Assembly: GCF_964204865.1 (NCBI RefSeq)
Contig: NC_135262.1
Location: 2,294,001 to 2,358,000, forward strand
Source: Styela clava
Lineage: Eukaryota
Reading direction: 5' to 3'
Length of the DNA: 64,000 nt
Shown piece by piece: positions 1 through 64,000 of this stretch. The notes below the pieces were generated by a model. The model saw only the letters and a program-made list of their open reading frames with translations, was not told the origin of the DNA and did no database searches. A program made the translations under genes and the position numbers. Within the stretch, counting starts at the first letter, position 1. Every line of letters begins with the position of its first letter.

Positions 1-169
1 ACACTTATACATGTTGTTTGAGATAGGGCGGATATAATAAAATACGAGAAAAACTTAGTTAAAGAACAATAGGGGTAGGTTGTTGGCTTGGGATATAAAA
101 ATATATTGATCGTTTGAAACATTAAAATAAGAACTTAGTGGAAGGGCGTATTAATGTAGAAAATTATTG

Positions 170-705
170 TTATTTCTGTTCAACGAAAAAATTATGACTC
201 GGCAAAAACTGTTGATTTTGAGGGTTAAAAATATCACAAGCATTCAGTAACGACGTTTCGTCACTTCCTCCAAATACGTCATCATCAATGTCGTCATCAA
301 AAGAACACTTCCGTTTATTTCCCGACATCATATCGTTTATATCCGCGTCCAAAAATTGTTGCAATGCGTTCGGTGAAAGAGTTGGCAGTGGGCAAGGATT
401 AAATTGCGTCATCGATTCGGGTGATGACGCAGACGGCGCTGGTGACGTCATTATTTTTTTTGTAGCGTCTGTAATGTCATCTTTTACAATTGGTGATGTA
501 GAAAATGCATTTGTAGCGTTAAAAGCAGCGCTTAAAATGTCCGCCTTTTCTATATTGGGTATAGGCATCACATGTGAAGCAGTCCCTGGGGACTCCCCCA
601 TTCTGCCGGGGATTGGTGACGACTCGCCGGACGAACTTGACGGCGTTGAGGTAATTGTGGTTGTTGATTTAGGAATGTAGATAACGGGTAGACTTGAATT
701 TGAAT
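170..705 (-). CDS. eomes: T-box gene last coding exon (S/T/P-rich, acidic C-terminus)
   Basis: acceptor ctttctacttcacag|AT in phase 1 runs in frame into the 170..601 ORF, ending ...HNFFVEQK-TAA. Confidence 0.85.
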
Positions 706-3700
706 CTGTGAAGTAGAAAGATTTATTTAATATTGTTTTAATTAAAATATATTTTCGGTAGTTTCGTTGTGTTGCAGCATGATATAAATATTAAAGTAGC
801 CTATATAATTTGATTCAATAGTCTTGCTGCACACTAACACAAAAGTATTTCTGTATAGTTTTGTCTGAACGGGAACAAACTTCTTCAGAGGAAACGTTAC
901 AGAAATACATGCGTGTTAGCGTGCAGCAAGACTCTTGAATTAAATAGTATAGTCAACTTTATTCTTGCCATAGCATCCTTGTGTTACACGCACACGAATC
1001 CTTTCCAATAAAGTTTAATATGGCCAACTGATGGTTACGATAGCCCATAAATATGCTTAAATATTGGATTTGTTTACCAACATCTAATACAGGTTGTGTG
1101 ACATTTTGGGCAATATATTAGATTTTATTCAATTGTTATAAACATAATTAAGGTTTAGCAATTGCATTATATCGCATTTCATGATTGTATAACAGTGTAA
1201 TTCAATATATATATAAAAATTTGTCGCTAAAATTCACAGGTTGTGTGACTTTTATATGGCGAAGCATAGGCGTTACGGAAAAAGTAAAAAAAAATCATAT
1301 AAAACGAACCTTTATTTTGCGTAGATGTGTTAGCTTGCTGGGCTGCTTGTTCTTGGTAGTAACTGCACCTGAAGAAAGTCGGTAGTTGGGTATTGGCACC
1401 GCCTGTAGATAGAAGAAATATTTGTTGATATAACTATCCTGTTTAGCTTGTACAAGTTTGGTTGTAGCGAAGTCATTAGCCCTCAAATGAAAGTGGATAT
1501 ACCAAAGGTACTTTAAATAACTCTAACATGGCTTGGAAAATAGCTAAATGGTAGGGGAGGCCCCATAGTGCATTATTCGGACACATTTTTTCATAGCAAG
1601 TTCACGAGTTTTCGACTTAAGATGGGAGCAAGATATTTCAAACAATGAGTTAACACCACCCACTGAACAGCTAACTAGAAAGGAATGTACAATGTAAATA
1701 CCTTAACCCAAAACATACCATCAATTCTTATTTTAATTAATACTCTTAGTCTCTGTCGCAAATTTAATAGCTTATAACGCGCTAATGTTCGCTATCGACT
1801 GTGCCGTCAGTAATATTTACCATTTAGTTGACGGCTTGGGACGTTAAATTGAGACTTGCGAATACGAATGCAAAGATACAGTACGTCACTTCTATCAAAT
1901 ATCTTTTCACTTTTAGTTTAGGGCTCAGAACATTACTTTGAGCGAACATGTATTGTATACAAATATAAATCTCATAGCACGAAAGCTATTAGATCAGTGG
2001 TCCTCAAACGGTGAGGCGCGTCCCACAGGGGGCGTAGACAATTTTCTTAAGGGGCCTGAAGCTAATTACAAATAAAAATAATTGTTAGATTTGATCTTGC
2101 CTGCCGTATTACGAATATTTACATTTTTTATTGTTTACATTTCTTTATTGTTAAGATATTGCGATTCCATCCACATATTTTCAACGTGTTTTTTGAATAA
2201 AACATACTTTCGTCTTATTATCTGTTATTTGTAGCTTATTGTTAGCTAGTTATTTTAGAGGTGGGGCGCGAGACCCAACTAAAAAGGGGGCATAGCTGGT
2301 CTGTGGCTGTTTCCACTAAAGAAAACTTGCAAAAATAGAACTATAACTACCACCGTACGTACCTTTACTTAAAGCTTCCGTCTTCACCCGGGCCAGGTCA
2401 AAAGGTAACGTGTTGCTCAAAGGTGCAATAGCATTAGGAGGAAAGCACCGATCCACGTTTAATAATTCGTATTTGTCCTGAAATATGTAAATATGATTGT
2501 AATTGATTTATTGATTAATGAGATAGTAAAGTTTACATTTTTACATTTGAAAGTTTTCGTGAATTAAGCGTGGATTTCAAAGTAAATGCATATTGGAACT
2601 ATTACAGGGTGTCCAGAAAATCGCCGATTTTATAATAATGATTAATTATAATTAAAAATTTCTCTTTATTTTATAGTGATAACAATAAAAAAAAATTGTC
2701 TGATTTTATAGTACTAACAATTGTAAGTTTAAACAAATTTTATTGTATGATAAATGGGAACTACAAGCACGACAAGAACTATTAATAAACAAAGACAAAG
2801 AAATTTTCAATTGTCATTACTGTAAAATCGGGTGACTTTTTTTGGGTAATAATGACACTGCGTAGTTGATTGATCAGAGCCGTGTGCAGAGTGACGATGG
2901 GAAAAATAAAATATCTCTTAAGAAACTCGGCTGGCACATGTCTGTATGTAGCATTTCGGTAGAATTGATCAACTTCATTTATCATAACGACTGTCGTTAT
3001 GAAGCAAAATTACATTAGAATATTTTAAATCATGGCCCCAAAACTCTATTTTAAAAACGACATTTCATCCCAAAAACTTTTTGAGCCCACGAAGACAATT
3101 TTCCTATGTTACCTAGGAATAATGATCTTTTTGAAATTTATGATATAAAAGGGGAAAGCGCTGACTGCTACTTTACTCATGTATATGGATCTACTATTTA
3201 TGTAGAATCTCAAGAGGCGAGAGAAAAAATATTCATCACACCAATTTTTTACAAAGTAATAAAAAAGGGCTTAAAGTCACCAACCAGTGGATTTCCATTA
3301 TTAGTCTTCAATCTTTTAGCGCTCGGTGTCTTGATTATATCACTGGATACACTTGGGCCAAAATGATGAACAGTTTTCTTTGACGGATCAGAATGTTGTG
3401 TAGTTGTATCTTTTCCCTCTGACATATTGCTGAGTAATCCTTCCAATTCACGGTCAAAATCGACGTTAGCTAGACTGTTGTTTTCTTCAGTTTTCACATC
3501 AATACCCGCTGTATCTATGGTAGGAATTGTAGTTGAAGATTGGTTTGTGGATAACGCGTCTAGAAGTTTCAAGGAATATGATATAAAGTTAGTAGTGAGA
3601 GGTGAAAAGTATTCGTTTACGTTGCAAGAAGCAACTGTATTAAAGTTTATTGAATTTAAAAATCTTGCTGCACACTAACACGAATATATTTTTGTAACGT

Positions 3701-6700
3701 TTCATATGACCGAGGTCAGACTACTTCAGACAAGCATTTTCGAACTATGACAGAAAAGCGATAGCATGCATATAAATAACCGTTATTAATTGTCAGAATT
3801 CGTGAGTATCTTTTGTTCATCTCATAGTGGGTCATTTGTCCTCGCTTTGGGTCATTTAGTCAAAATGTCTCTGCTACGGGCGAACATACTTACAAAAACG
3901 CAACCTCCACACACAGTCGGTAGTTGAATTATGTATGTCTGAAGAAGTCTGACCTTGGTCAGACGAAACGTTACAGAAATATATTTGTGTTAGTGTGCAG
4001 CAAGACTCTTGAATTACTCCACACACAACGCGTATTTCTATCAATTTCCTTCCGGTAGCTGACTTTGCTGAATTAGGTTGACAATTATATAATGTGTGAC
4101 ATTTGGACTAGCTTTGCGATTGATATTAGACTGTAAGTCTACAGACATTTTACTATATTTAGCGCTTCCTGCATGACCATGTTCCACAATTTCTGATTTG
4201 AAAATATTGGTTATTTCAGCAGATTATATAAGGTGTCCATAAAGGCCTGAATATTTTTTTTTTATTGCAACAGCAATTTATCGATACCGTATATTGTTTT
4301 GACCCTCACAGCTGTATTAAATGAAGTAAAAATACCTAACAATTACTGATTGAAAAACAACAAATCTGGTTAAGATATATTGAGACGGGACTTCATAACA
4401 AAATTGAAAATGTAAAGGAACTTTATGGACATCCTATATATTTACTTACTTCAGCTTTTTAACATCCAAAGTATTCCATTCAGAAATCTTTTATTTTGTT
4501 TTAATTAGCGTGCACACGACTGTTCAGTAAAACTTTGCGCTTATATTTTTCTCAAAGTTTCTGTACGCTTTTAAAAATAAACTTACAAAATATCTGATAT
4601 AAGATTTTCCTACTTTTTTTACATGTACTGTGCCTACGCCTGTTTAGTTAAACTATACGTTTATACTTTTTCTCGTAAATTATATGCGGCTGTTGTGCGC
4701 TGGTTTCAAAAATAAATTTGGCTTGTCATACACGACATTATGACTTTGAACTACAATTTATCAATTCGAGTCAAGGAGAAAAAATACGTGGAAATTATCG
4801 AAAACTGAAACTAAATAAAAAATTTCATCAATCGAGATTTGAATGTGATTTGCGTACAAGGTTTGAAAAATTGGAGATTTGCAAAAAATTGTGAATTTCA
4901 TTCGAAGATAAGTTCGAAATTTCTGGAAATGTATAAAAACTGAAACTAAATAAAAATTCATCAATTGAAAATAGGATTTGCAATTTTGAGTGCGATTCGC
5001 ATATAAGGTTTGAAAAATTAGGAAATTGCGGAAAAAAAAAGGTAATTTGAAATTGACCTTGAATGTCATCTATCAATTCGAGTGTTATAGTCATTAAGTG
5101 TGAATAAAGATCTTGAAATACCCGAAAATTGACAAAACTGAAACTAAAAAAAGAATTCGAGAATGAGATCTGCAATTTTGAATGCGATTCGCATATAAGG
5201 TTTGAAAAATTAGGAAATTGACAAAAAAATTTGAAGTATAAGAGACAAAATGGCGGCGAAAATCGAGCAATTTACTGAAATGAATGGTGGACAGAAAAAA
5301 TTTTAACATTTTAATCGAGTTTTTCTATTTAATTCTTTCAAAATCCTTTTCATTCAAAATTTTCATAATGACTTTTAAAAGATTTTTCTCGAAATGGATA
5401 AAAACTGAAACTAAATAAAAATTCATCAATTGAGAATGAGATTTGCAATTTTGAGTGCGATCTGCATAAAGGTTTGAAAAATTGGGAATTTGCGAAAAAA
5501 AAAGTTAATTCGAAATTGACCTTGAATGTCATCTATCAATTTGAGTGTTATAGTCATTAAGTGTGAATAAAGATCTTGAAATACCCGAAAATTGACAAAA
5601 CTGAAACTAAAAAAAGAATTCATAATTCGAGAATGAGATTTGCAATTTTGAATGCGTTTCACATATGAGGTTTGAGAAATTAGGAATTTGGCAAAAAAAA
5701 TCTGAAATATAGGAGACAAAATGGCGGCGAAAATCGAGCAAGTTACTGAAATGAATATGGTGGACAAAAAAGATTTTAACATTTTAATCGAGTTTTTGTA
5801 TTTAATTCTTTCAAAATCCTTTTCATTCAAAATTTACATAAGTGACTTTCAGCAGATTTTGGTGTTACTAATATTATATCAGAATACCGTCATTCTTGCC
5901 AATAACATTTGTATATTAATGCAAACTAAGCAAATGTGGCTAGCCTATGATGACGAGAAACATTCTCTCCAAGACACAGGCAAAAATATCTCTGTACATA
6001 TCTGCGGCTGGCTGGATACAGTCTTGTTTTGAGCATATGATTAAAAACTTCTTTAGTTTTGAGGTAAAATCTTTTCAACTTTTTGGGGACAAAACTTACA
6101 CAGAAGGTGGTATTTTAACAAATTCTGACATTACTAATATTATTCCATAGTGTTAGTCTTGCCTATATGTACATTTGCCCGTTTTGTAAAAAGAGAGAGA
6201 GAGAATTTATCATTTCGCCAACCATGAAACCAATACTATAAAAAGATTAATAACAAAATAAGCGAATCAAAATTTTCGGTAATGACTGGGAGATAACGTA
6301 GCTTCGGTAATGACTGGGAGATAACGTAGCGGTCATCGAGTCAGTTACCACCTCCGACTATATGACTGAAAGCAGAATTGGGCAAAACCCTTACAGGCCA
6401 GAAAAATTTAGTTCTTTCAAGAACATAGTAGCTCTTCCCATTACAGTGGACGTGGCTGTTTGTCTTGAGCTCTGCTCTGAGCAAAAGTCTAAATATCATA
6501 AAATAATCCTACCTTGAGCTCTCACGAGTTGTGTCATCGTATTTAATTGTTGTTGCATAAAGTGCTTTGCTCTTTGTAATTCCGTATCTTTAACTGGGTT
6601 TTCAACTTTGACTATAGCTTGAGGTTCATTCGCTATTGTTGCGTCATTATTTTGTTGATTCCATGGAGAGGTGACGTCATCAAGTCGTGACGAATCTGGT

Positions 6701-9700
6701 TCGTTTTTATCCGATGGCGACGGTGCACTTTCTACTGATCTAGGGCTTTTAAATATAGGAGAGATAATTGGTAAAACGTGACACATTGTTATGTCACAAA
6801 TATAATTAGGCTCGCAGACGAACTGTCTGTCTCAGATTCGTCTGGTCTGTTTTGGATATTTATTTCTGTCAAGTCATTGACGTGTTATATTAGATTTTAT
6901 AACGAAACTAAACACTGATCTTGGCACATTTATTGCCATTTTTCATATATACTACTTATATTTGAATACTTTTACATAGCACACCATAATTAATTGATAA
7001 TACAGTTTTGCATGGCTGTCATGAAAATCCCACTATTTGAAGTCAAATAACCCCCTACTACTAATGTTCTTAAACTTTTTAAGCCGCGCCCCCTTTTTCG
7101 AATTTGTCAAGTCTCGCGACCCAACTCAAAAATAACTAGCTAACAATGAGCTACGAATAACAGATAGTAAGGCGAAAGTATGTTCTATTCGAAAAAATGC
7201 GTGAATGGAAAGTAAATAATGAAAAAGTTTCGAAACGTAAATATCCGAAATAGGGCGGACAAGGTTAAATCTAACAACTATTTTTATTTTCAATTAGCCT
7301 AACGCCCCCTCAAAAATTGTCTACGACCTCTTGTGGGAGAGGAGACCATCCAAATTACGACTGGAGGCAATACACCCATCTTAACATCTGCTCTTACTAT
7401 ACGAAAGACGCTGCTAGATATGCGTGAGATTTTGATAGAAATTCGGCTTATATACAGAGTGTCCCAAAATAAATGAAACTCGTTAATTAATTCATTTACC
7501 AATTTTGCGGGTTTCATTTATTTTGGGATACTTTTTTTCATGACGTCACACCGTAATTATTACTGCACAAAAGCTTGTATATATGTGTCATCGTTGGACA
7601 ATTTCGTGTTGTCCAAAACACATCTTTTAAAGTCCATTTGGTAAAGTATACAGAGCCGTGTGCTTGCGCCTGTGTACATGCTATCAGCTTTAATTGCTTT
7701 ATGATATAAGATGGGAAATTTAACCATGTCTCTCTTCCAGTCACAACTTTATAAAGGGTATTATGGCGACTTAAGGAAGTTTTAAGAAAATATTCCAGGC
7801 TAATTCTCAGAAATTTTAAATTGAGACGATTGTATTAGTTATTACTTCACAACGTAAAAGTTGGAATTTAAATATTTTTTCTATTCGCCATACATACATG
7901 TATTCAAATATATTTTCAGTTTACCACCATCCTGTTTCATATTCATTTTCTAACAGGAAGCGCGACATTTCATTTTGAAGTTTGACTATTGTATTTATAC
8001 CACGACTTACCCTTCTCTCTTACACTTAACTCATTGTTTATATAAATAATATGACAGGATGCGCGACATTTTATTATAAATTTAAGGTTGACTAATACCT
8101 TCAAACCACGGTTAAATCTCCTGTTGCGCACTGACGTATATCAAAATGATATGACAGGATGCGCGATATTTTATCTCGAGATCAAGGTTGACTATTGCCT
8201 TTATATAAAGACTGAATCTCCCTCCTGCGAGAACTTATGATTAATTGTTTACTAAAATAATATGACAGGATGTGCGACATCTATCTCTAAAATTCAAGGT
8301 TGCCTATTGCCCATAACGCAAGGAGCCAACCTAATTTTCCTGCACTAACTTATGCTTACGGTAATTGCTTAATAAAATAAAGTGGCAGGATACGCGATAT
8401 TTTATTTCAAAATTTAAGGATGCCTTTACATTACATCATAGCCAAACTTCATTCAACTATGGAAAGGTGCATTGGCTTATGTTAGACTTTCTTTTTTAAT
8501 TTTATAAGCACGAATCTTGCCGTCAATTCTGGTCTAGACCGGTGAACGCACGTTTTAAAGAGGTGAAACATCAGACGTTAAGTAACAAGTTGAATTGAAT
8601 TTTAAATATTTCTGTCTGTAGTCTAGACTCTAGACTTCTTTAAATGACAGACACTCAAGCAAAGAGCCGGCTGGGTTAAATTTACTCCAGTAGGTTCATT
8701 GCATTTAAATATCCCTTTTACCGGGCGAATACTTAAACGCCGTAGCTACCAAGAAATGATTGTATAACTAGAAAAATCGTAGGTTTTAAGTCGTACTGGT
8801 CTAAGTCCTACTATTGTATTTAATCAGTCCTTATTACGGTATGGTAAAGAGTTCATACGCTTTGACATTTCTTGGGATAATATTTGAATAAATAAATTTG
8901 AATTCTATGCAAAAAATGCGAATGGTTGCTACCAGCTAACGTACAAAAGAAAAGTATATCGTTTCGAATGTCCTTACATACACGCTTTATCGGGGCAATC
9001 AAACCATGCATAAGAAGGCCTTAAAATTATTCCTCCTATGATATATAGTCTAAGACTTATCAGTTTCTCGACGTAATTTATACGAGTTGAACGCATAGAA
9101 AAACACAACGTTGCGGCACTTTTTTTTCTGAACTTACTGCCTTATTCTCACGAGTAAATCACGACTATTGCGCTCATTGCTTGTCCAGACTATCACCCTC
9201 ACGATTTCCTACATATCTGCCAATCAGGTGTAAATTAAATGACAAGTGAATTATTTCTTGAAGCTGTCGGTTGTCTCGACGGGACCGTTGCCAGAGTTTT
9301 GACTGTCCGACTGGATTTATTTATATTATTATTCACCGAATGAGACACTCACGAGATATCGTGATGGAGCGTCAGGGACGTAGGCCAGGCCAAAGGCTGT
9401 AAACGGGATTTTCAATAGTACCATCAAAGGACCCCCAATGGTCACGCTCCTGTGACGAGTTGTACGGCCGTGGGTTAGAATACGGAAGCTCCCGTCACTC
9501 CTTAATTATTATAAAACCAACTATTATACAGAAAAAATGACGCTGAGGCCAGCTGGTAAAGCGGAAATTAATTTACATATCTTCCAATCAGGTGTAAAAT
9601 AAATGACAAGTGAATTGCTTCTTGAAAATGTCTGTCGTCTGGACAGAACCGTTGCCAGAGTTTTGAATGTCCGACTGGTTTCATTTATATTATTATTCAC

Positions 9701-12700: not shown

Positions 12701-15700
12701 AACTGTACATACCTGATATCTTTATCTCTAAAACATCTTGCAAACGGGTTGAGGTTGATCTTGAGTTGAGCTACCTGTAATCGGAAGTTGAAAGTAACAT
12801 TTATCAGTAAACTTAATTTCCAATCGAAGAATGAATCTAATGTTTTGGCTATGTATTATTCAGATAGTGATTTAATCTCGTAGCAATGCAAAGATTATGA
12901 AAAAGAAAAGGGGAGACAGACGATTTGATGACTGGTCAGGCTACTTATCTGGTTGGTAATAACTAGTACGTAATCAACTAATGATTGGTGCACCAATGCA
13001 TATACTAAAACAATATTTTATTTTATATCAGTAACACAACAGTCAATAATGTTATTTGTAAAATTTCATCACACATCGGCTTCTAACAAGCTTCTAGACC
13101 ACCTGTTTTCAACCAGTCGGCCGTGGCTCAATGCTGAGCCACAAAGCCCACAAACATATTGATAAATTTAGTTTCATTTGTGTGATTATAGTTACATTTT
13201 AAATGCAGTAGCAAAAATGCTGCTGCTGTTTTTTACTACTGAGTGGTAATTTGTATTTAATTAAATTATTAAAAGTCTAAGTGTCTATATTGCGTGAAGA
13301 ATCAATTGTTTTTCCTGTAACTTTACCCTGGCATGGAAAAGTTACGAATTTTTGTGCAACAAAAATGGGCCACGACAGAAAAAATGTTCAGAACCACTGT
13401 TTTAGACAAAATGTTTCTTAAAAGGGCAGTAATATTTCCAGTTTGACGTAGATTTGCTCTAATGCAGTCTTGGGCGAAGTTTTTCAAGTGTGGCTCAATT
13501 AGTAAAATGAACAAGGTTTCAAGGCTCATCAAACCAATGAAATGAACGTAACGATCGTTTAATATATAAACAAAAAACATTTGGCAAAGATTTATATGTA
13601 ATGTTTGATTTGTAGAACGTTTTGGTGTAATTGAAATTTATTGGAGGCCCACTAGAAAATTCTCGGGGATTGAACACGAGCCACGAACATAGCTAGAGCC
13701 AATTCGGTAAGCACTAAGCTAATTCTCTGCACCTTCCTGGTATTGATTGACGAATATGTTTTACCAAAGACGCATCCGGCAACGAAATTTCATGATTAGA
13801 ACACGTCAATCGCACGTAAATATGTCAAAGCAATTAAACAAATTGGCTGTCTCGGTAGGTCTTGTGACATAGCGAGGGACTTTGTTGTTTTGTTGTGATT
13901 AATGTATTTTGAATTTGTAGGAAAACAACAAAATGTAATGTATCATGTTGTCTGTTGTTTGCCAAGTTGAAAGAATGAGTGGTTTTTATGGAAATTTTTG
14001 TTATTGCAATTGGTATCGACAATAAGACAGGGATTTTAAATGCTGTGAAAAGATCATTTCTTCTGACTGGAAGTCGTAATTCACAGGTGTCGCAGAACAT
14101 TCCTATTTATAAGACTCAGTTATTCAAACTCATAGTTGAAAAAGTTTCTATTTTTAAGAGTGCATTAATTTTTTTCGACTAAGGTTTGACATATATTATG
14201 ATTTGTTTGAAAAAATCCAAGACTAAATTCTGGAATTATAAAAGGTTGTTATTGTAAAAGTCTACTTACATCTGTGTTATGGTATAACGTTACTGTCATG
14301 AATTGTGTCTTCGGGATGATGAACGTTCGAAGATTGGTTTGAATTGAAGGGTCACGGGGGTCAACTTCTACCACGTGGAGGCGCGGTTGATATTTGTGAA
14401 GTGATTTCAAAGAAAGCTGTGAATAAAATAACAATTGTTGTCATAACGAGTTTAGCAATGTTATTACAAAAAATAGAATGCGCTCCAGAAGTATGTGTAC
14501 CAATATAGAGGTGACTAATTTTGTTCGCCTACTTTACATCAAGTTGTGCAAAGGGACGGAAACCTATGGACAGGGGGTAGAGCCACTTGGCTAACACAAT
14601 CAGTCCTCGAACTCGTAATGAAACTAAAGGAAAATCGGAAAAAAATTATGGTCTGACCCTAACCTGGTACACATACTACGGGAATACTAAATAAAAATGT
14701 TAGGAGCAAAGGTTCAGCTAATTCTATTATTCCCCAGCAATATTTCAGTAAAAAAACAGTTAGAAATGTGATGAGGGAAACTTATTCTTGTAAGACAGTT
14801 GTCACGCTTATGTTGTAATCATAGTATTGTCGAACTATTCAGTATCAGTAAAGGGATAGAAATATTATTATAAGATAATATCGATTTTGAATTGAAAATT
14901 ATTGAATATGATATAGACATTTTTCTAGGGGTAATTTTAATTGTGCCATAACAGATGTAGATAAAAAGAACAGTATTATTATCTACTCTCTTACGATGTT
15001 TAGTTAATTTCAGTGTGCTGCCTCAATTTATACCCGTACCTCAAACACATAATTACCAAAATAAACGCGTATTATGTTTTGCTCAAATTCGTATCGTTAA
15101 TATTGAAAGCGTAAATGTGGAATAGTACGTAAACAGACAGTGGGTTCAACTGTTCCACTAAGACTTGAAGCAATATAGAGCAGGGGTGGACAAAATTTTT
15201 GAACGAAGGGCAAAAAATTTTGCCTACCTTGGCTGATGGCCATGTGAGTGTGACGTAAAATGTTACATTTTATGAACAATATTTACGGTGTTACAAAAGT
15301 GAAAATGAAAAAACAATAAGCATCGTGCCGAAACTAAATTTAATCGCAATCTCAACAAAAGCCTTGAGCTATTTTTTTTTAGCTACAACATCAAAATTCG
15401 GTTTTTTGTTTGGCGTGGCAGCATCAGGCGGGTCAGATCGAAGTACCAAATAGGCCGGATTTGGCCCGCGGAGCGTAGTTTGCACATGTCAGGTATATAT
15501 GGATGTATAGCCGTAATCGCCAACTATAAAGTGGCAATTGTAAACAGGAACAAATGGAAAAGTCAAATAACCAAAAATACCTTATCGCTATCATTGTGAA
15601 GATGGTTGCTCAATTTCATCTTTGAAAAACTAACACCACGTTTATTCCAAACATCCCCAGATGCGGGAGAGTCGGGATGAAGGCAAACCCTGTGGCTTTT

Positions 15701-18109
15701 ATCGTAGAAATCTTCTTCCGGGGCAAGACCAGATGGATTCCATTTTTGTTCACTATAATAGGTTTGTATTAGAGGTTATATTGTAGAATATACCGACTGC
15801 ACATAAAGGTTGACAAATTTAAACTGATAAAAAAAATTGGGAATATTGAGAATTAATGGAAATAAACATTGTTTTGGAAATACACCATTTCTTATCTTAT
15901 ACCAGAAAACGACATTTAACTTGTTTGGCACAACGAGACACATTCTTTCGTTGGTTTTGCCACATTCCCATCGAGAAGAAAATGGGCAGTTTGAGGACCA
16001 CAAAAACCCATTTAGAAGTGAAAGAAGCTTACTAATAATTTTTTTTATTCTACATCTCAGTTACAAGGAACTATAAGATAGAGCAGAGGAGATGGTTATT
16101 AATATTTGTAGAGGCGCTATTATGTATTTGGGTGACTGTGTATCCGTGAGTGCTATCTAGCGTGGTTAGGGAGGGATACAGCTTGAGTATTTAAAACTAA
16201 ATAGTCTTTTAACGAAGACTGTATGAATAGGACAAGACAAGAACTAGAAAAATAAACTCTCGAACATCATAATTATGTAATAGGGAACAAAAAGATCCAT
16301 TATTAAGGAATCTATTTTGGTTGAATGGTCCAAATTTTTAGATGTATAAATTCCAAGCTTACCTGAATTTCCACACGTATTTATTTGCAAGAACAAAATC
16401 GACGAATACACTGTACAGCTTCTGTGGATGTAGACCTTTCACGTCATATTCCAAGACAGGGAACATTCGTCTAAAACGATTTAAAGAAATATGTCATGTC
16501 ATTAAACTGTGGAACTACAACGTTAGAAAAGAATTATCTTTTGCATCTCTTTCCTGAGATTGGGGTCGGTGGCCTACCGCTTGGCGCACATCTAATACGA
16601 CAATGCGTTTTGTCACATTCAATAGGAGAAACTTAGAATGTTTTTAAGACCAAATTTTATTCCTCAAAAGACTCGAAAGTTATCCTCAAAATCATACCTC
16701 TATGCTGATGACCATCTCAATGTAAAATACGCCAAAACAGACATAAAATATTGCTTTCCGCTGTGCATCCAAGCTTATATTTTGAAATCTTAAACTAATT
16801 ATAAGTAAAAGTGGATGAATATGATTCTGTCATTGCCCGAAAGTGATGAATTACGAAAATTGCATGTAGAACTTCTTTAGAGTAACCTTCACATTCGATT
16901 TTCTCACAGCATTATCATTAAAATCCTACCTCCCATGTTTGCTGATGACCATTTCCATGACTACGCTTTCAAAATTCTTCCACAAATCGCTATTTCTTAA
17001 TTTGACCTTTGCCCCCAAGCAATTGACTTCCCAATCATTTCCACTAGTTCCGGTCGTTGTTCCGGGTGGCACATCTGACGGTACTATCGGAACCTTGAGA
17101 AATAAAGATATGGCGTTACAAATATGTTTCCATATACAAAATTTAGACTTCTTATTATATATATTCCGGTATTATTACTTTGCTGAAAAAATAACTTGAA
17201 TAATTTGTCCCGAACGTTAAGCATACACTAATTGTATCTACATTGAGGGTAATTTGGGACGACATAACTCTTCAGCTTTTGTAAAACAATTTCGATTTGA
17301 ACGACTTCCCAAATTTTGTCAAAAATCTTCCATCTATTCATTCTCTGGCCAAAGAGCGCAAATTTACGCACTATTACTTACTTGAGGCGGTCTTGGAATT
17401 TGTGGTATTGGTGGCTGAATTCCCGGAATAGAGGGGTGAACACTAGCAGGATGTCGAAATTTAGGGGGTTGCGGTGGCTGAACAAATGGAACCATTGGAG
17501 GCGGAGAAGAGTTCTCACTTGAGATACTAGACATTGGAGATGGGGTGCTATACGGATGAGATGGATTTGAGTTCCACGCTGGTATGGCCCCTGGATTTGG
17601 GGACACTTGAGAGCCATTAAATCCACCGTGCTGTTGTTGAAACTGGTTGTTTGGGAACGTCGTATTCCCTGTTGGGCTCGGTGACACCATCCAGCGGTTG
17701 TCATTACCATGCCCTTGCATACCCGGGGTGGCGCCATAATCTGAGCTCTGTGATGAAGAGGACATTCGCCTACGCATCGTTGCAACCTGCATAACAAATA
17801 AAGACTAATTTGTGAGTTGCTTGCTAACTAAAGATTTATTATGATGGAGAACGAAAAATATATTGAAGATTCTGCATTTCGATTTCAAAGTATTTTCCCT
17901 CTGTTAGACTTAAAACAGTTTCGTATGTAAAGGAAAACGAACAAAACCATAAATTACTCAAAATAGGTCAATATATCTGATTGATATTTAGAGTGAACGT
18001 CTGTGTAGGTAAAAATCTCACATTGGCCCGAACGAGTGCGCCTTCAATTAAAGTCGACCAAGACAAAACGCCCTTTTCGTAAGAGGCCATTTAGATAGGA
18101 GTTTGGGTA

Positions 18110-18146
<37 letters not shown>

Positions 18147-18792
18147 GTCCCGAAATAAATCGAATTAATGGGTTTCATTTATTTTGGGACACCCTTATAT
18201 ACTTTACTTTTTCAAATATACTGTCATTGCATAGTTGATAATATTAGTAATTTTGTGCTATTGGCAATAGCTCATTGAGCAAAATACCGTGCTTCATAGT
18301 CAACAGTAAAACGCTTTATACCTGGTCATAAGGGTTTGGCATTCCTTGAACGACCGGACTCGTACTTTGTCTGTACGGCTGTTGAATTGTGGGATTTTGA
18401 TGTTGCATTATGGGAGGCGAAGCGCGGTTGTGTTGTTGCTGAATCCAATTTCCATGTTGCCAATTCCCGTTTGTAATCGTTATCGGCTGGGAATTTGCAT
18501 TGTAGTCTTCATGCTGCTTCGCATTATTGTTGTTAAAGTTATTCCATCCATGCATTCCTTGTTGGTGCCTGTTTACCATCTGAGCTGGCTTGTAAGCCAT
18601 TAAGGGTGGACTCTGCCTGTTTCTCACGTGTGGCATAGGCGGTGAAGGCCGTTGGTAAGGATTATACCTTCCCGCTCCTGGGTGAACGTAACCACCGTTC
18701 GGCACTACCCCATGGTTGAATTGCTGTATGTTGTTCAGGCCTTGTGCTGGATACCCCTGGTATTGAAAATTGCCATACGCAACTTCTGCCAT
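170..18792 (-). CDS. eomes: T-box transcription factor, Eomes/Tbr1/Tbx21 subfamily (ascidian mT-like); 12 coding exons, 2781 nt, 926 aa
   Basis: join(complement 18322-18792, 17382-17786, 16930-17093, 16363-16470, 15581-15752, 14270-14416, 12713-12774, 6513-6745, 3285-3559, 2363-2477, 1310-1402, 170-705); all junctions are GT-AG and phase-compatible. T-domain: [27 protein letters not shown]...[15 protein letters not shown]...HPDSPASG...KMKLSN...[16 protein letters not shown]...[51 protein letters not shown] and NTD|xxQLKI match the Eomes/Tbr1/Tbx21 subfamily. The subfamily call is less certain than the T-box call. Confidence 0.88.
813..990. mobile_element. Second inverted copy of the hammerhead-bearing repeat
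   Basis: arms 813-855 and 898-940 are reverse complements and homologous to 3652-4015; a degenerate core lies on the minus strand at 852-890. Confidence 0.65.
1310..1402 (-). CDS. eomes: T-box gene exon 11
   Basis: acceptor ttctatctacag|GC, donor AAAG|gttcgt; phase 1-1; GANTQLPTFFRCSYYQEQAAQQANTSTQNK. Confidence 0.75.
1995..2292 (+). mobile_element. hAT-type MITE family C (copy 1, one end missing)
   Basis: starts CAGTGGTCCTCAAAC; body homologous (reverse complement) to 7061-7350 and 28469-28810. Confidence 0.7.
2363..2477 (-). CDS. eomes: T-box gene exon 10
   Basis: acceptor catatttcag|GAC, donor AAAG|gtacgt; DKYELLNVDRCFPPNAIAPLSNTLPFDLARVKTEALSK. Confidence 0.78.
3285..3559 (-). CDS. eomes: T-box gene exon 9
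   Basis: acceptor aaacttctag|AC (phase 1), donor CTG|gttggt (phase 0, required by the next exon); DALSTNQSS...NNGNPL. Confidence 0.75.
3652..4015. mobile_element. Penelope-like terminal-repeat relic: two inverted ~80-bp arms, each containing a hammerhead motif
   Basis: 3652-3732 is an imperfect reverse complement of 3936-4015 (tcttgctgcacactaacac...cttcagaca / tgtctgaag...gtgttagtgtgcagcaaga). Confidence 0.65.
3936..3975 (+). ncRNA. Minimal type-I hammerhead-ribozyme motif (Penelope-like element type)
   Basis: TGT-CTGAAGA-A-GTCTGACC-TT-GGTCAGAC-GAAA-CGTT-ACA: core CUGANGA/GAAA, perfect 8-bp stem II, palindromic AACGTT in place of stem III, short stem I TGT/ACA. Confidence 0.6.
4228..4437 (+). 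mobile_element. Tc1/mariner-type MITE
   Basis: TA-flanked aggtgtccataaag...ctttatggacatcct; reverse-complement homologue at 56094-56300. Confidence 0.7.
4758..5836. repeat. Higher-order tandem repeat (about 465-bp dimer built from ~90-bp subunits)
   Basis: 4927-5390 is duplicated at 5391-5836; subunit aaaactgaaactaaa...aaggtttgaaaaatt starts near 4801, 4935, 5134, 5401 and 5597. Confidence 0.85.
6275..6330. repeat. Perfect 28-bp tandem duplication
   Basis: (ttcggtaatgactgggagataacgtagc)x2. Confidence 0.95.
6513..6745 (-). CDS. eomes: T-box gene exon 8
   Basis: acceptor tctcctatatttaaaag|C (phase 2, matches exon 7), donor CAAG|gtaggg; PRSVESAPSPS...LVRAQ. Confidence 0.8.
7061..7350 (-). mobile_element. 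hAT-type MITE family C (copy 2, degenerate)
   Basis: gtcaagtctcgcgacccaactcaaaaataactagctaac...aacagatagtaa shared with 28469-28810. Confidence 0.65.
7453..7535. mobile_element. Tiny Tc1/mariner MITE (almost TIR only)
   Basis: tacagagtgtcccaaaataaatgaaac...gtttcatttattttgggatac. Confidence 0.65.
7950..8425. repeat. Diverged 100-120-bp tandem array, 5 units
   Basis: RCAGGAW-GCGCGAYAT...aaggttgactatt motif at 7953, 8054, 8154, 8265 and 8385. Confidence 0.8.
9210..9955. repeat. Diverged direct duplication (9210-9530 vs 9574-9955)
   Basis: shared ccaatcaggtgtaaa...ccgttgccagagtttt...gacactcacgag...cgtgggtt...acggaagctcccgt. Confidence 0.85.
11522..11726. mobile_element. Degenerate hAT MITE
   Basis: ccgtgttccctaac...ggttaggaaccactg; TSD-like acctagtt/acttagct; subterminal gggtcg motifs. 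Confidence 0.5.
12713..12774 (-). CDS. eomes: T-box gene exon 7 (62 nt, end of T-domain)
   Basis: acceptor cgattacag|GTA, donor AG|gtatgt; [20 protein letters not shown]. Confidence 0.95.
13100..13399. mobile_element. hAT MITE
   Basis: cacctgttttcaacc...gttcagaaccactg; TSD ttctagac/ttttagac. Confidence 0.6.
14270..14416 (-). CDS. eomes: T-box gene exon 6
   Basis: acceptor ttattcacag|CTT, donor GAT|gtaagt; [18 protein letters not shown]...[13 protein letters not shown]. Confidence 0.95.
14479..14688 (+). mobile_element. Merlin-like MITE family A, long form
   Basis: TIR core agtatgtgtacca/tggtacacatact; TSD aaatagaa/aaataaaa; homologous to 27514, 32085, 39316 and 48273. Confidence 0.75.
15181..15492. 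mobile_element. hAT MITE (CAGGGGTG-type)
   Basis: CAGGGGTGGACAAA start; subterminal ggccggatttggcccgcgg...tagtttgcaca. Confidence 0.6.
15581..15752 (-). CDS. eomes: T-box gene exon 5
   Basis: acceptor tattatag|T, donor AAG|gtattt; EQKWNPSG...VCLHPDSPASGDVWNKRGVSFSKMKLSNHLHNDSDK. Confidence 0.93.
16363..16470 (-). CDS. eomes: T-box gene exon 4
   Basis: acceptor cgttttag|A, donor AG|gtaagc; [35 protein letters not shown]. Confidence 0.95.
16930..17093 (-). CDS. eomes: T-box gene exon 3 (start of T-domain)
   Basis: acceptor tttctcaag|GTT, donor AG|gtagga; VPIVPS...[27 protein letters not shown]; ends in phase 2; not in the ORF track. Confidence 0.93.
17382..17786 (-). CDS. eomes: T-box gene coding exon 2 (S/P/Q-rich)
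   Basis: acceptor tttgttatgcag|GTT, donor CAA|gtaagt; 405 nt; VATMRRRMSSSSQ...PRPPQ. Confidence 0.85.
18112..18196. repeat. (AT)n microsatellite abutting a 55-bp Tc1-type MITE
   Basis: (AT)~15 at 18112-18142, then agggtgtcccgaaataaat...atttattttgggacaccct; same family as 7453-7535. Confidence 0.75.
18322..18792 (-). CDS. eomes: T-box gene coding exon 1 (Q/N/P/G/Y-rich N-terminus)
   Basis: ATG of MAEVAYGNF at 18792; donor CAG|gtataa; 471 nt, phase 0; acceptor ttcctctaagcag lies 10 nt upstream of the ATG. Confidence 0.8.
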
Positions 18793-19031
18793 ATTTAAAA
18801 ACCTGCTTAGAGGAAAACAAGAGCGCAATTCTCAAATATATTGTCATGTAGGACAATTTACTAATATGGCCAACAGTAAGTCATTAATAGCGCCGGATGT
18901 CATCACAAAAACAAAATAGCAATTCTCATAATATATTGTCGCGAAGGACAACCAAGTAATATGATCAATTCATCCAATGTACCCGATGTCATATGACGGT
19001 AGAAGATGAATTGATGAAACAAACAAAAATT

Positions 19032-27474: not shown

Positions 27475-27513
27475 TCAACATGTGTACTTCGTGTGCAAGA
27501 ATAGTCTCTTATT

Positions 27514-27715
27514 AGTACTTCCGTAGTGTTTGTATCAGGTTAGGGTTAGGCCATAAGTTTATTCCGATTTTCCTCACTTTAGTTCTATTACTAGTTCGGG
27601 GACTGTATGTGTTATACCACATGCCCATAGGTTTCAGTCCCTTCACACAACTTGATGTGAAGTAGTCGAACAAAATTAGTTACTTCCATATTGATACACA
27701 CACTTCTGGAGCGCC
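27514..27715 (-). mobile_element. Merlin-like MITE family A, long form
   Basis: perfect 8-bp TSD CTCTTATT on both sides; ends ...cttctggagcgcc. Confidence 0.8.
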
Positions 27716-28468
27716 CTCTTATTCATTCAACCTAAAATATCTCGTGAACATGACTCCGCGGTTCATACATAATCCGCCTTAAACTTTAGAATCTAATCAG
27801 TTCCCAAGCCTTTCGACCTCAGCCTATGTGGCACGTGGGTGTACAATTAACTGATCTTATTGGAATGTGACCCCAAAAGGATTACAGTGTTTTAAAAATG
27901 GGGTAATGTTTCTTAGTTATCCGATTAAACGGTGTATCTAAAGCACTATTGCTATTGTTTTTCTTTGATGTAAACAGATGTGTTGGGATTATCTCGTTAA
28001 GAGTTCATACTGGTCAACAGCTAAATACAACAAATCAAAACATGGGCAACTTTTCAAGCATTCATGCCAGGGAGTGTTTTAAAAGTAATACTTAGGAAAC
28101 CATGACAACACTTTGTCTATATCTGAGCTTAGGAGCAGAAAAATCGTGCGCAGGTACACCGGCGCCAGTGGGCAATTCTTGAAGAGCGAAACCTGCTTGA
28201 TTCGTGGTACCAAGCTATTACAGCGTACGATGATACACCATTGTATCGCTCAGATTTGAATTTGCAAAAAGCAAGCCTAGAATGAAGCTTCACCTTCATT
28301 CTATTGACATTCACAAGTAGATCTGAACGCGTTTTCCCCTTATATAAATATATATGGTGTCTATGGAGTCTTAAAAAATTTCAAAATTGCCAAAGAATAA
28401 TTATCGGTACCATATATTTTTTGGCCTTCACAGATGTGTTAAGCAAGATGGACTTTTTTAATATAGAG

Positions 28469-29520: not shown

Positions 29521-29785
29521 GAGATCTTTTGTACAAAGCCCCGCCACTGATGCAAAAATGTGAGATTTGAAAAAAACACGCCCGCCATGTTTTAAAACAA
29601 GAAATTAGGGCGCTCCTAAAGTATGTGCACCAAGATGGCACACAACCTGGACCCTAAACTGGTACACATACCATGTTCAGGTTATGCGCCATCTTGGTAC
29701 ACATACTTCTGGAGGTCCGAAATTAGTAGTTATTCAATTCAGGGTTAGGAATGATTTGAAAATTTGAATTCCTAACTCTACCACA
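29521..29785. mobile_element. MITE family B, interrupted by a family-A insertion
   Basis: gagatcttttgtacaaagccccgcc...gaaattag[insert]gaaattagtagtta...gggttaggaatgattt. Confidence 0.7.
29609..29718 (+). mobile_element. Merlin-like MITE family A, short form, nested in a family-B element
   Basis: GGCGCTCC...GGAGGTCC with long TIRs; perfect TSD GAAATTAG. Confidence 0.8.
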
Positions 29786-32693: not shown

Positions 32694-32792
32694 GGACCTC
32701 CAGAAGTATGCGCACCAAGATGGCGCACAACCTGAACATAGCAGGTGTGTACCGGTTAGGATTCAGGTTGATGCGCATACTTATGGAGCACC
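32694..32792 (-). mobile_element. Merlin-like MITE family A, short form
   Basis: ggacctccagaagtatg...ggagcacc; TSD taattact/caattact. Confidence 0.75.
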
Positions 32793-34454: not shown

Positions 34455-34567
34455 GGCGCTCCGGAGGTATTCGTACCAAGATAACGCACAGCCTAAATAG
34501 CCCTAACCTGGTGCACATACTATGTTCAGGTTGTGCGCCATCTTGGTACGAATATTTCGGGAGCACC
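34455..34567 (+). mobile_element. Merlin-like MITE family A, short form
   Basis: ggcgctccggaggtattcgtaccaagat...atcttggtacgaatatttcgggagcacc; TSD-like gttggaga/gtttgaca. Confidence 0.72.
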
Positions 34568-39315: not shown

Positions 39316-39498
39316 ACCAGATAAGGTCATAATTTTATTCCGATTTTACCTAAGTTAGTTCTTAGTTCGGGGACTGTCTGTGTTATCCAAGTGAATATAC
39401 CCCCTGCCCATAGGTTTCAGTCCTTTCATACAACTTGATGTAAAGATAGCGAACAAAATTAGTTACCTCCATATTGGAGGTAACACTTCTGGAGCGCC
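39316..39498 (-). mobile_element. Merlin-like MITE family A, truncated
   Basis: cataattttattccgatttt...cccataggtttcagtcc...aacaaaattagttacctccatattgg...cttctggagcgcc. Confidence 0.72.
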
Positions 39499-42389
39499 CT
39501 TTTTTTACAATATGCCGTGATTTCAAGCTACAGACATCAATTGCCTCAAACAAATCGCGACTGCTCGTCTCTACCTTCCTCTCACTGCTACAGCGCTCCG
39601 TAATCTATCAAATTTTTAATAAAAGAAGTCTTGCAACACGTTGATACCGTAGTGTATCGGCCACCACTCTTATTGGAGTAGTTATTTATTGAACTTAAAA
39701 GTAAAGAAGAAATTGCAAATAAGCGAAAACAATAAAAAAAGAAAATTTATTAAATATTAGCAAAATTTCATTACCATAAAAAAAAATAACATATTAGTTG
39801 CAAAACTTTTTGAATAAATTTTCTCTGTTAAATCTTGTACACTCAGAAATATATATAAATATTTGAATATTTTTGTGCAGTTCTATCAAGGCTGAAATCA
39901 ATTACTCAAATTTAATCATTTTACCGATCATTTCTTAGATAAATATGTTTTTCTTATCTTTGTTTGCTAATCTGTGACATTCTCGTTGGCAAATATTGAT
40001 TGAGTACCAATTCTTATGAACATTCAACGAAATGATCGGTCATTTGGAGATGTAAATAGTGGGCCGAACTTGCTCTGAATAAAACATTTTGTGTAAAACT
40101 AAACATAACGTTTTTAATATCTTGGAAAGCAAGAAATACGATTTTGAAAGTGTTACTAAGTTTTCAATACAGATCATACTAAGTGAGAAACTATGTTTTG
40201 TATAGGTTTTAATTGTTTAATTGATAAAGGCAGAATGGTGAAGTTTTTTATTTATTCCATTTTACCTGCTGTTAAATGATTTTTACACTTCACAAGTAGT
40301 GTAATTTTTTATGTATTAAACAAGGATGATTTCACATGTTTTCATATCTTACTATTCGTTCCCGGGTTGTTGTGAATAAAAAGAAAAAAACGCTTATATA
40401 ATTCACCAAGCTTGGAAGTTTTAACAAGCTCTAGCAATTCTCACAGAGCTACATAATGTAAAACTTATTGAAAATAAATGTATTTTTGCTTGTAATATGC
40501 CTTCTGACATAATTATTTCATTGTAATCGATCGACATAGGTAAAAAATTCAAACTAAACGTTTACCCAAATCAAAAATGTAAAGTTTTTGGGTTGGTCTG
40601 CAATGCTAACATTTGGATAAATTTGTCGAAAACATGTAGACCGAAAACCTCCACTCATTGGGGAGAGTCTTATGATTTGGTGATAGCAATATAACTGAAT
40701 TTCATTATCCGAATATCTATTTGCAATCGTAAATTCATAGCAACCCAGCTCAGGAAAAATAAAAGTGCATCAGATTGTAAACAAAACAGAGAAAAGCCAC
40801 TTGCTCTATGAAAGCATATCACCAAAATATTAAAAAGAAAAATAATTATTTATAACGCTGAATAATATCTACATAATATGGTGACGAACGGGGTACTTCA
40901 AAATAATTAGTGATAAAATTATGCGGGGCAGTAAAATTGTTTTTTTTTTACTGCTAAGCGGTTATTTATTGCAACACAAATTATGCGGTTTGTGTCAAAA
41001 CAACGTTCTGCACTGCGGTGGTTTTTGCAACGTTGCAAGACTTACAATTTCGCAATCGTTAAGGAGTTGAAATATGATATTAGAGTTTTTTCCCAGTCAA
41101 ATATCTTAGCAAAATCGAGATAAAGTTGGGTGGCACATTGGTCGGTTAGGCTATAATATTTAGTCAGACCCGCCACCGATTTTATTCTATCAAAGTGGCA
41201 CATATATGTTTCTTGTGATTGTGCCGCCTATGATTAATACTTGACGAGTTTTGTTCAACGAAAAATTGATTTTCGCTTGTAAAAATCATTTCGGATGAAA
41301 ACGGCTAAACGTGAATTAAAGGTACGCCCAAACCTAAATTTATGTAGAAGCATGAATTAAATTCGAACGATATCAACCCAAAAACGTCGAGTAATGTTCC
41401 AGTATTGCGAATGGTCGCTCATGCTTGTCAGGCACAAGCACGATTCTTCGTTTTTCCGGAACGTACTTATGAATGCAATGGGTCCTTGACGTGTGGCGAC
41501 CTGATGTCTCGTATGACCCTCACTGCTTCCTCGAGTTTGGCATAGTTTTCGGCGCAGATTTAATTAAAATTTAGACCTACATTTTAGAGGGGTTTTCGTT
41601 GTCGCTCTAAATAAAATAAACAAACAAACTTAAATAAACAATAGCCCAAACAGGTGACTCTTTCACAAATTCTACAGTAGCCACGACTTTTGTTGTGGGT
41701 GCCTATAAATTGAATTTTTGGCATGACTCTCCCTAAATAATAAACAAATAAAGCCCTCAGTTGCGTCAGCAAAAAATAATAAATTGAAACAGTGAGCATA
41801 AGTGTTGTTCAAAGCAACTTACAGCACAATAAAGCATTGTTTTCACCAAAAATTGAAAATAACTTGTTGACAAAATGGTCCAATGACTATGCTTGGTATT
41901 TAACAGGGCTTTGACACTGTTTAGACCTCATTCATCTACTTTCGAACCATTTTTTAATATTTATCCCAGATTTTTAAGAACAAACACATACAATATTACT
42001 ACATAATTTGACGTTTCACCTTGCATTTTTCGTGCAAATGCCCACCTAACCAAATGATCGTCACGTTAGTTTGATAATTTTTGTGGCAATATTGTGCAGT
42101 TTTGCTCTTATCTGCATTAACAGCGATGCCATTTCAACATTTATCTGGAAATTATGCTTCATTCCAAATAATAGAAACTTAGATTTTCAATAATACCATT
42201 CCAGAAACTTCTCCTAGATTCATCGGGCGGCATTCTGCACGCTTACAGTGTTGGAAGTGGGGCGTTGGGAGCAATTGCAGCATTCAAAGCGCGCGACATC
42301 TGCGGATTCCTTGGAGCGTGTCGCGGCATTTTGCTGCCTTTTGTACTCGGCTGCAACGTTTCAATTGTAACGTTTACCAAGTGTTTCTG

Positions 42390-42785
42390 TTACATACACC
42401 CGCACCTTTTTACAATCATGTCCGGCACGTCGCTATATATTATATTTTCTTCATTGTCAAAATAGAGCATACTCATAGGGGCCATTTTTGTGGGAGCACA
42501 ACACGGCGAAGCTGCTTTAGGTTGATTTTGCCCCGAGTGCATCGCGAGCACTTTGTGTTGATTGGTTTGTAAAAATAGCACTGGGCATTCTCCCGCGCAG
42601 TGGTATGATCGATATATGTTAGGATTAATTATCCAATCCCATCCCATTGCTCTGAAGTCTATTTCAAAATCGTATTTACAACATCTTTCTTCTCGTGACT
42701 CTTCATTACAAATCAAAGCTCCAGCATCTCGCTTTTTTCGTCTGCTGTTCAAATTGCTTGTTAGATCGACCTCGAGCATCGGTTT
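42390..42785 (-). CDS. mstn: myostatin exon 3 (furin site and mature growth factor)
   Basis: acceptor tcttttatttttag|AAA; KPMLEVDL...RRKKR-DAG...RCGCM-TAA. Confidence 0.97.
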   Translation of the reverse strand, partial: KPMLEVDLTSNLNSRRKKRDAGALICNEESREERCCKYDFEIDFRAMGWDWIINPNIYRSYHCAGECPVLFLQTNQHKVLAMHSGQNQPKAASPCCAPTKMAPMSMLYFDNEENIIYSDVPDMIVKRCGCM

Positions 42786-63533: not shown

Positions 63534-64000
63534 TGCAAAGTCAATTATTCCTTTAATTAAGTTTCGCTTCTGAGGTTTTTTTTCCAGAAATTAAGTCCTC
63601 TGACGTCTTAAACCTCGGCTTGCAGCGGTCTTCAATTGTATATTTCAAGTAGCAATAATTATGGTATACTCACGCCTAGCAATTACGACTATTGGGTAAT
63701 CAGATACCAACTTGTATCTATATATATATAAAAAGAAAAAAACATTCGCACTTTTCTCAAAAATTACCAATCGAACTGGAAACATTTTTTTTACTTTCGC
63801 TAATATTTGAAAGCTAAGTCATATTTCGTGTCGTTTCAAAATGACGAATAAAACACGGGCTCCGTTTCTCACGAATCTTGCACACTTGCGTTACTTCTCC
63901 TTATGGTGAGGCAACGTTTGCAAAACCCGGAAAAAAATCGACACAGTGAAAAAATAAACTCTCAAATTTTTCGCGCCGGTTGAAAACTCATTTGCGTTAA

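Follow-up and report, generated by a model that had tools for sequence, protein, structure and literature searches.

A minimal hammerhead motif in a stub of a young Penelope-like element of Styela clava, and fixed copy ends that likely mark an RNA start and two reverse-transcription start sites

Positions 3936–3975 of the window (the whole 64,000-nt stretch of Styela clava DNA that was analysed) hold a real minimal hammerhead motif within a 99-nt stub of a young Penelope-type element, an arrangement that is already known. Sequence comparison makes it highly probable that the motif represents the minimal hammerhead in a terminal repeat (pLTR) of a Penelope-like element (PLE), and that the stub arose by reverse transcription of the first ~98 bases of a capped, uncut RNA. 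The sequences show an intact parent element, a target duplication (TSD) flanking the stub and a ribozyme core that does not vary. They also show two hairpins with covarying pairs downstream of the core, and genomic copies that end at fixed positions. The more useful part of the result is the fixed copy ends, which likely mark the RNA start and two hairpins at which reverse transcription would begin.

Results

Anatomy of the hammerhead motif

The interval 3936–3975 reads TGT CTGAAGA A GTCTGACC TT GGTCAGAC GAAA CGTT ACA, matching base for base the motif described in the original prediction. On the basis of sequence, fold and family comparison, we annotate it on the plus strand as a minimal type-I hammerhead consisting of a 3-bp stem I (3936–38/3973–75), the core CUGAAGA (3939–45) followed by one extra A at 3946, stem II (3947–64), GAAA (3965–68) and ACGU (3968–71), with a predicted cut after U3972; family positions are numbered from this cut, +1 being window position 3973. 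The motif follows the core CUGANGA...GAAA-NUH and has a long stem II with G10.1–C11.1 and an unpaired base after A9. It is without stem III, and the positions around 15.2–16.2 are palindromic, with ACGU invariant across the subfamily representatives. Stem II, which had been called perfect, is an 8-bp complement that folds into 7 bp closed by a 4-nt loop, and the folding z of the 45-mer is -2.27 relative to shuffles. A pseudoknot through loop II appears unlikely because the loop sequence differs between subfamilies (UU, GU, CU, UC).

A loose core pattern gave 5 matches in the window versus 3.84 expected, which is not an enrichment, and the Rfam scan proposed as a check on the motif returned no hammerhead match at E ≤ 5 in the window or at E ≤ 10 in 3900–4030. 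The case for the hammerhead therefore rests on the family to which it belongs.

An autonomous parent element carries the motif in both terminal repeats

Searching the 377-Mb genome with 3925–4020 returned at least 46 matches at 98–100% identity (40 of 1567 candidates scored), and a 25-nt string of stem II and core occurs in 218 exact copies genome-wide versus 0 for reversed-pattern controls. Minimal-core patterns of the GUU type matched 894 times genome-wide (9 in controls) and those of the GUC type 131 times (4 in controls). The search for copies joined to RT/GIY-YIG open reading frames, which had been recommended along with the prediction, was successful (L031 and L032). The full-length element L031 3604–7235 (3.6 kb) has 238-nt direct terminal repeats and a 940-aa ORF, with motif copies at 3754 and 7148, one per terminal repeat and 3394 nt apart. 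Hammerheads are likewise present in both pLTRs of L032, which holds the second intact ORF, and of L081, L082, L083, L084, L085, L093 and L096, and intact ORFs of three subfamilies are present in the same genome. Both the proposed identity, a PLE-type minimal hammerhead of type I, and the link to a PLE are thus borne out by an intact RT/GIY-YIG element with the same motif in both of its repeats.

The 940-aa protein matched the Pfam families RVT_1 (E 8e-10) and GIY-YIG (E 1.4e-4, marginally below the curated cutoff), and the element has the single ORF by which EN+ PLEs are recognized, encoding an RT followed by a C-terminal GIY-YIG endonuclease. DKG, a CX4CxxC linker (CGRKSCSTC) and CCHH (CKKC...H...H) are conserved in aligned homologues. 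Since Neptune and Nematis are defined, in the accessible part of PMC8557442, by a CX2-5CxxC linker before GIY-YIG plus CCHH, these residues place the element, by sequence, with Neptune/Nematis and not with Penelope/Poseidon. The element protein has a 99% identical counterpart at NCBI, assigned to the ascidian Styela clava, and no named PLE reference element was found among the 120 protein matches listed. The family displays all the traits of EN+ PLEs, namely pLTRs from partial tandem arrangement, inverted truncated copies, a tail and TSDs. Much of the ORF is covered by contigs from three sequencing runs presumed to be of RNA; such contigs carry no start, strand or level information. Long open frames lie beside some PLE copies (L036 161–3655, plus strand; L042 2921–5115 and L049 1–2582, minus strand), and the frame starts in L036 and L042 presumably resemble LINE endonuclease/RT proteins.

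The window copy is a lone stub

The window copy occupies 3920–4018 on the plus strand and represents a 99-nt 5′-truncated pLTR copy, from -52 to +46 of the predicted cut, of the young autonomous PLE subfamily F1. It is identical to the 5′ pLTR of L031 at 98/99 positions, so that, instead of the non-autonomous, retrozyme-like membership first suggested, it is a truncated copy of an autonomous family. An 11-bp TSD, CTCCACACACA, lies at 3905–3915 and is repeated at 4017–4027 (both plus strand), the first 2 nt of the right copy being common to the element end; this 11-mer occurs only twice in the window. Four untemplated bases stand on the 5′ side of the stub (3916–3919, plus strand), of which the G at 3919 is likely a copy of the RNA cap. 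The 5′ strands of a hairpin of the element 5′ UTR (hairpin A, +21..+33) lie at 3993–4005 on the plus strand, and the stub ends inside the loop of this hairpin.

The locus is a solo stub with no tandem array. The hammerhead in it is likely inert, since it has no tandem partner and opposes nearby long minus-strand frames that are possibly host exons. These frames (3249–3674, 170–790, 6496–6831 and 17364–18831) resemble host-gene exons and gave no Pfam match.

Older relatives nearby are separate insertions

Three further loci had been assigned to the same family (813, 3652 and 57991). They are true relatives, at 71–89% identity, and none keeps an intact hammerhead. The first is an older head-to-head pair at 808–1001, with a short-ended minus arm (889–808) and a long-tailed plus arm (885–1001), the hammerhead being broken or incomplete in both. 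The second is an older, separate pLTR fragment on the minus strand (3648–3778), nearest to subfamily F4 (85.6%), whose hammerhead is broken by a change of A9 to U and by stem II mismatches. The third, at 57989–58163, is an older head-to-head pair with no hammerhead sequence (minus arm 58030–57989; plus arm 58043–58163, corresponding to the tail).

The fragment at 3648–3778 opposes the young stub, and the two arms are 84% complementary over 3653–4015, as a single inverted repeat would be if a non-autonomous retrozyme or MITE-like unit had moved as one piece and brought the motif with it. Such units have some precedent, given that the genome also holds a sister family of non-autonomous tandem units of ~580 nt (L113) and that animal retrozymes have been proposed, in the available part of bioRxiv 10.64898/2026.07.22.740005, to derive from PLEs. 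Nevertheless, identity to the autonomous element is 99% for the right arm (3920–4018) and 82% for the left, which is closest to the other subfamily; the TSD flanks the right arm only; the spacer (3760–3915) is single-copy in the genome; and the locus has no tandem array. The arm identities, the one-sided TSD and the single-copy spacer largely refute a MITE-like unit, and we hold this origin of the motif to be extremely improbable. As judged from the sequences, the apparent inverted repeat is two separate insertions of different age, because the left arm is older, belongs to another subfamily and has a broken core, and the DNA between the arms is single-copy.

The young stub is inserted ~130–140 nt from the older, opposite-oriented fragment, which may reflect chance or a preference for existing copies. 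A likely splice acceptor near 3633 lies ~15 nt away from the end of the old fragment.

A tandem derivative and a second hammerhead family

The search for tandem arrays, negative at the window locus, was positive in the sister subfamily F5, where L113 (G000:C1:6692500-6698500) holds at 1786–4341 a non-coding tandem derivative with ~580-nt units. Each unit consists of the hammerhead, the 5′ UTR and the ORF start, followed by an internal deletion. Three of the units lie on one strand and two on the opposite strand. L113 is a retrozyme-like member of the family: if at least two tandem non-coding hammerhead units define a retrozyme, the window copy is not one, and F5 in L113 alone is. In comparison with the non-LTR retrozymes described in the accessible portion of bioRxiv 10.64898/2026.07.22.740005, the type-I hammerhead is similarly related to those of PLE pLTRs, whereas the window copy is a single stub that derives from a coding element and tandem non-coding units occur in F5 (L113) only.

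A distant second minimal-hammerhead family (L101–L112, L127–L131) has a GUC triplet, a stem I of UGCC/GGCA and an AU-rich stem II with U-U mismatches. It makes up most of the 131 GUC-pattern matches, and PLE ORF pieces adjoin it in L130.

The core is conserved and cleavage is predicted to be weak

Subfamily proteins are 62–77% identical, the hammerhead block 87.5–97.5%, the segment +4..+29 92–100% and the 3′ UTR 49–51%. Among nine subfamily representatives, the catalytic core changes at N7 and N17 only, and conservation of the core among copies is thereby confirmed in 9/9. Helix covariation fared less uniformly: in stem II, six close representatives differ by one-sided, wobble-type changes only, and in stem I 3/3 pairs are changed on both sides, against one distant GUC family only. 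In sequence terms, the conserved core and helix pattern fit the minimal hammerheads (min-HHRs) of PMC4209133, whose accessible text reports no monomer cleavage and low dimer cleavage.

Energies computed from secondary structure only, with tertiary contacts left out, were -17.9 kcal/mol for the active dimer, 2 x -10.2 for two monomers, -20.3 for a 6-bp AACGUU form and -32.5 for a stem-II duplex. The active double hammerhead is thus predicted to be less stable than the monomers, the palindrome form and the stem-II duplex. Because these energies disfavour it, cleavage is likely weak and assisted, and the weak cleavage anticipated in the original prediction is on these estimates probably correct. 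Dimerization through the AACGUU palindrome, also anticipated, holds in that an active dimer is predicted, in which the helix would comprise the 4-bp ACGU and not all six bases.

Copies begin upstream of the cut site

The ends of copies were mapped in 92 distinct arms (loci L133–L219) taken from the first 100 of 283 matches; the set is anchored downstream of the cut, and the anchor hides ends before +39. Among the matches listed, 23/92 arms begin at -41..-54 and only 2/92 within -1..+2, so that the genomic footprint of cleavage looked for at +1 was absent from these arms. Of 83 F1-type arms holding the core, 32 have their start at -45..-52 and two at -56, and the interval -53..-55 contains no starts (p 5e-6); the 83 include a few duplicated loci and some arms retrieved by a query whose first base was -47. 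In the sister family F5, 37/73 arms begin at -48..-53 and the edge is less sharp, 8/32 of the remaining arms ending at -54..-61 (p 0.01). Furthermore, an untemplated G follows 11/15 of the ends at -52 compared with 8/41 at neighbouring positions (Fisher p 3e-4, hand-read counts; 11/18 and p 0.003 with three doubtful rows added). All copy-end positions are uncertain by a few bases owing to microhomology. F2 has no purine at -52.

From the pile-up of 5′ ends and the untemplated G at -52, we infer that the RNA starts, capped, at -52 (window 3920) and that the template is sense RNA that has not been cut. The pile-up at -45..-52 might instead reflect stalling or template switching of the reverse transcriptase at the base of a folded domain. 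The stub is indeed predicted to fold with 3920–3925 paired to 4012–4017, and many junctions carry short re-copied pieces; however, this fold is no better than those of shuffles (z -0.96), F3 and F5 share the position of the cliff despite a leader identity of only 44–56% (F1 vs F3/F4), and a stall would leave unexplained the extra G, a reflection of the cap in L1 (PMC11702581). We therefore rate a stall or switch as unlikely relative to an RNA start.

Two other accounts of the upstream region were discarded. The AG that lies 13 nt upstream of stem I does not behave as a splice acceptor, in that truncated copies retain it and F3 and F5 are without it, and a second cluster of 5′ ends at -89 proved to be a subfamily variant and not an end.

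The copies also bear on whether self-cleavage of a dimer is a regular step of replication, in which unit-length RNA would be cut between the terminal repeats, circularised and used as template, a model proposed in PMC4209133 as far as its accessible text goes. The strong conservation of the catalytic core and the presence of the motif in both terminal repeats, 3394 nt apart, are in keeping with such a route. Against it, copies span the cut site intact, a circular template would not yield a cliff at -52 with an extra G, the active dimer is predicted to be less stable than alternative folds, and hammerhead mutants left in vitro insertion unaffected in another PLE, according to the available part of PMC11167929. 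On balance this route appears distinctly unlikely, slightly more so than a stall; a minor circular route may nevertheless exist, since its junction would match the genomic sequence. An antisense template has been proposed for PLEs in the accessible part of PMC3846280; the genomic copies examined here argue for a capped, uncut, sense template.

Copies end in the loops of two hairpins

The 3′ ends of the 92 arms, among the matches listed, are bimodal, with 60 at +42..+60, 23 at +155..+172, nine between and none beyond +172. Folding of the alignment yielded two hairpins in the element 5′ UTR. Hairpin A pairs +27..33 with +65..71, extended by +21..26 with +92..97, around a loop at +34..+64, and hairpin B pairs +139..147 with +180..188 around a loop at +148..+179. 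In hairpin B, 8/9 pairs are changed on both sides among seven sequences, with 96.8% paired compared to at most 52% when the strands are slid; in hairpin A, 2/7 pairs are changed on both sides among six sequences. As the hairpin sequences come from 5–7 related subfamilies, the independent covariation events are few. The short 3′ ends land in the hairpin A loop and the long ends in the hairpin B loop; the two hairpins are ~115 nt apart, and the tail measures ~110–120 nt.

Both ends were visible for 56 young insertions, including 15 head-to-head pairs, every one of which (15/15) combines one short and one long end. TSDs of 11–13 bp were found in 15/56 young insertions, the longest control match being 9, and were concentrated in the head-to-head pairs (12/15 vs 3/41 of the other insertions, the window copy being among those three). 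At the inversion junctions L009, L011, L012, L188, L230 and L268, short re-copied pieces of the template 5′ end lie between the arms (for example, CAACTAC repeated), resembling repeated realignment of the reverse transcriptase at the RNA end.

Other features of the window

Exons of a TGF-beta family gene are spread over ~20 kb on the minus strand (42390–42785, 47689–48246 and 62763–63590; Pfam TGF_beta E 2e-29, propeptide E 2e-10). MITE-like inverted-repeat families were seen at 29596–29731, 32694–32748, 34455–34567, 14471–14628, 27512–27723, 39324–39506, 48273–48367 and 7451–7540, and their hairpins gave sub-threshold matches to plant-miRNA Rfam models that are likely structural artefacts. 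Degenerate tandem arrays lie at 4782–5841 (period ~190–470 nt) and 7932–8414 (~100–120 nt).

Discussion

Published work already describes minimal hammerheads in the repeats of PLEs, along with inverted copies, tails and TSDs. In common with the PLE min-HHRs in the accessible literature, the motif described here has a 7–8-bp stem II, an unpaired base between 9 and 10.1, a G10.1–C11.1 pair, palindromic positions 15.2/16.2 and no stem III, and it occurs once per terminal repeat, ~3 kb apart, with many solo and opposed copies. It differs from them, as far as the accessible descriptions go, in its 3-bp stem I (4–5 bp reported), its GUU triplet and the lack of both-sided changes in stem II pairs among close subfamilies. 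Compared with the EN+ Neptune/Nematis PLEs in the available parts of Craig et al. 2021 (PMC8557442) and Arkhipova et al. 2013 (PMC3846280), the family shares a single ORF with RT and C-terminal GIY-YIG, the DKG, CX2-5CxxC linker and CCHH residues, and pLTRs, inverted 5′-truncated copies, an optional one-arm tail and TSDs. In contrast, the tail is ~110–120 nt here and 30–40 nt there, and the target sites here are for the most part AT-rich and show no clear bias towards microsatellites. A literature search, conducted outside subscription journals, Repbase and Dfam, yielded no paper on this family and none on a PLE tail of more than 100 nt, paired covarying start hairpins or a cap-derived G.

The closest mechanistic parallel is PAc, a Poseidon PLE of the lizard Anolis, for which the accessible part of Frangieh et al. 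2024 (PMC11167929) describes in vitro two internal RT starts that define a 30–40-nt tail, extension of both strands, a protein-assisted hammerhead, uncut RNA as substrate and no need for cleavage. In both systems, two RT start sites set the tail, both target strands are extended and uncut RNA is copied, as predicted here from genomic copies, and the later RT start lies in an AC-rich stem-loop. Unlike in PAc, where the corresponding elements overlap the ORF start in the part of the study available, the hammerhead and both sites lie here in the 5′ UTR, ~200 nt upstream of the first ATG, and the sites are ~3x further apart, each in its own covarying hairpin.

We propose that transcription would start 52 nt upstream of the predicted cut and that the RT/GIY-YIG protein would nick both target strands ~11–13 bp apart. 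cDNA synthesis would be primed in the loops of hairpin A (~+50) and hairpin B (~+163), and each cDNA would run off at the capped 5′ end, leaving either a single stub or a head-to-head pair in which one arm is short and the other long. The hammerhead may cut as a dimer only, through ACGU, weakly and probably helped by protein; its cleavage would spare the RNAs being copied and may act at another stage or as a decapping switch.

More tentatively, at a likelihood we would set somewhat short of even, the 5′ UTR of this PLE clade may constitute a three-part RNA device, comprising a hammerhead behind the cap and two covarying hairpins that each present one RT start. One insertion event would then prime both strands on capped sense RNA, and the hammerhead would be a decapping switch that removes the 52-nt leader and not a maker of templates. 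If true, such a device would account for the strict short-plus-long head-to-head pairs and the ~115-nt tail. The family provides a test case for the role of the PLE hammerhead and for the origin of inverted ends and tail, in which hairpins A and B are named, mutable targets for an existing in vitro assay.
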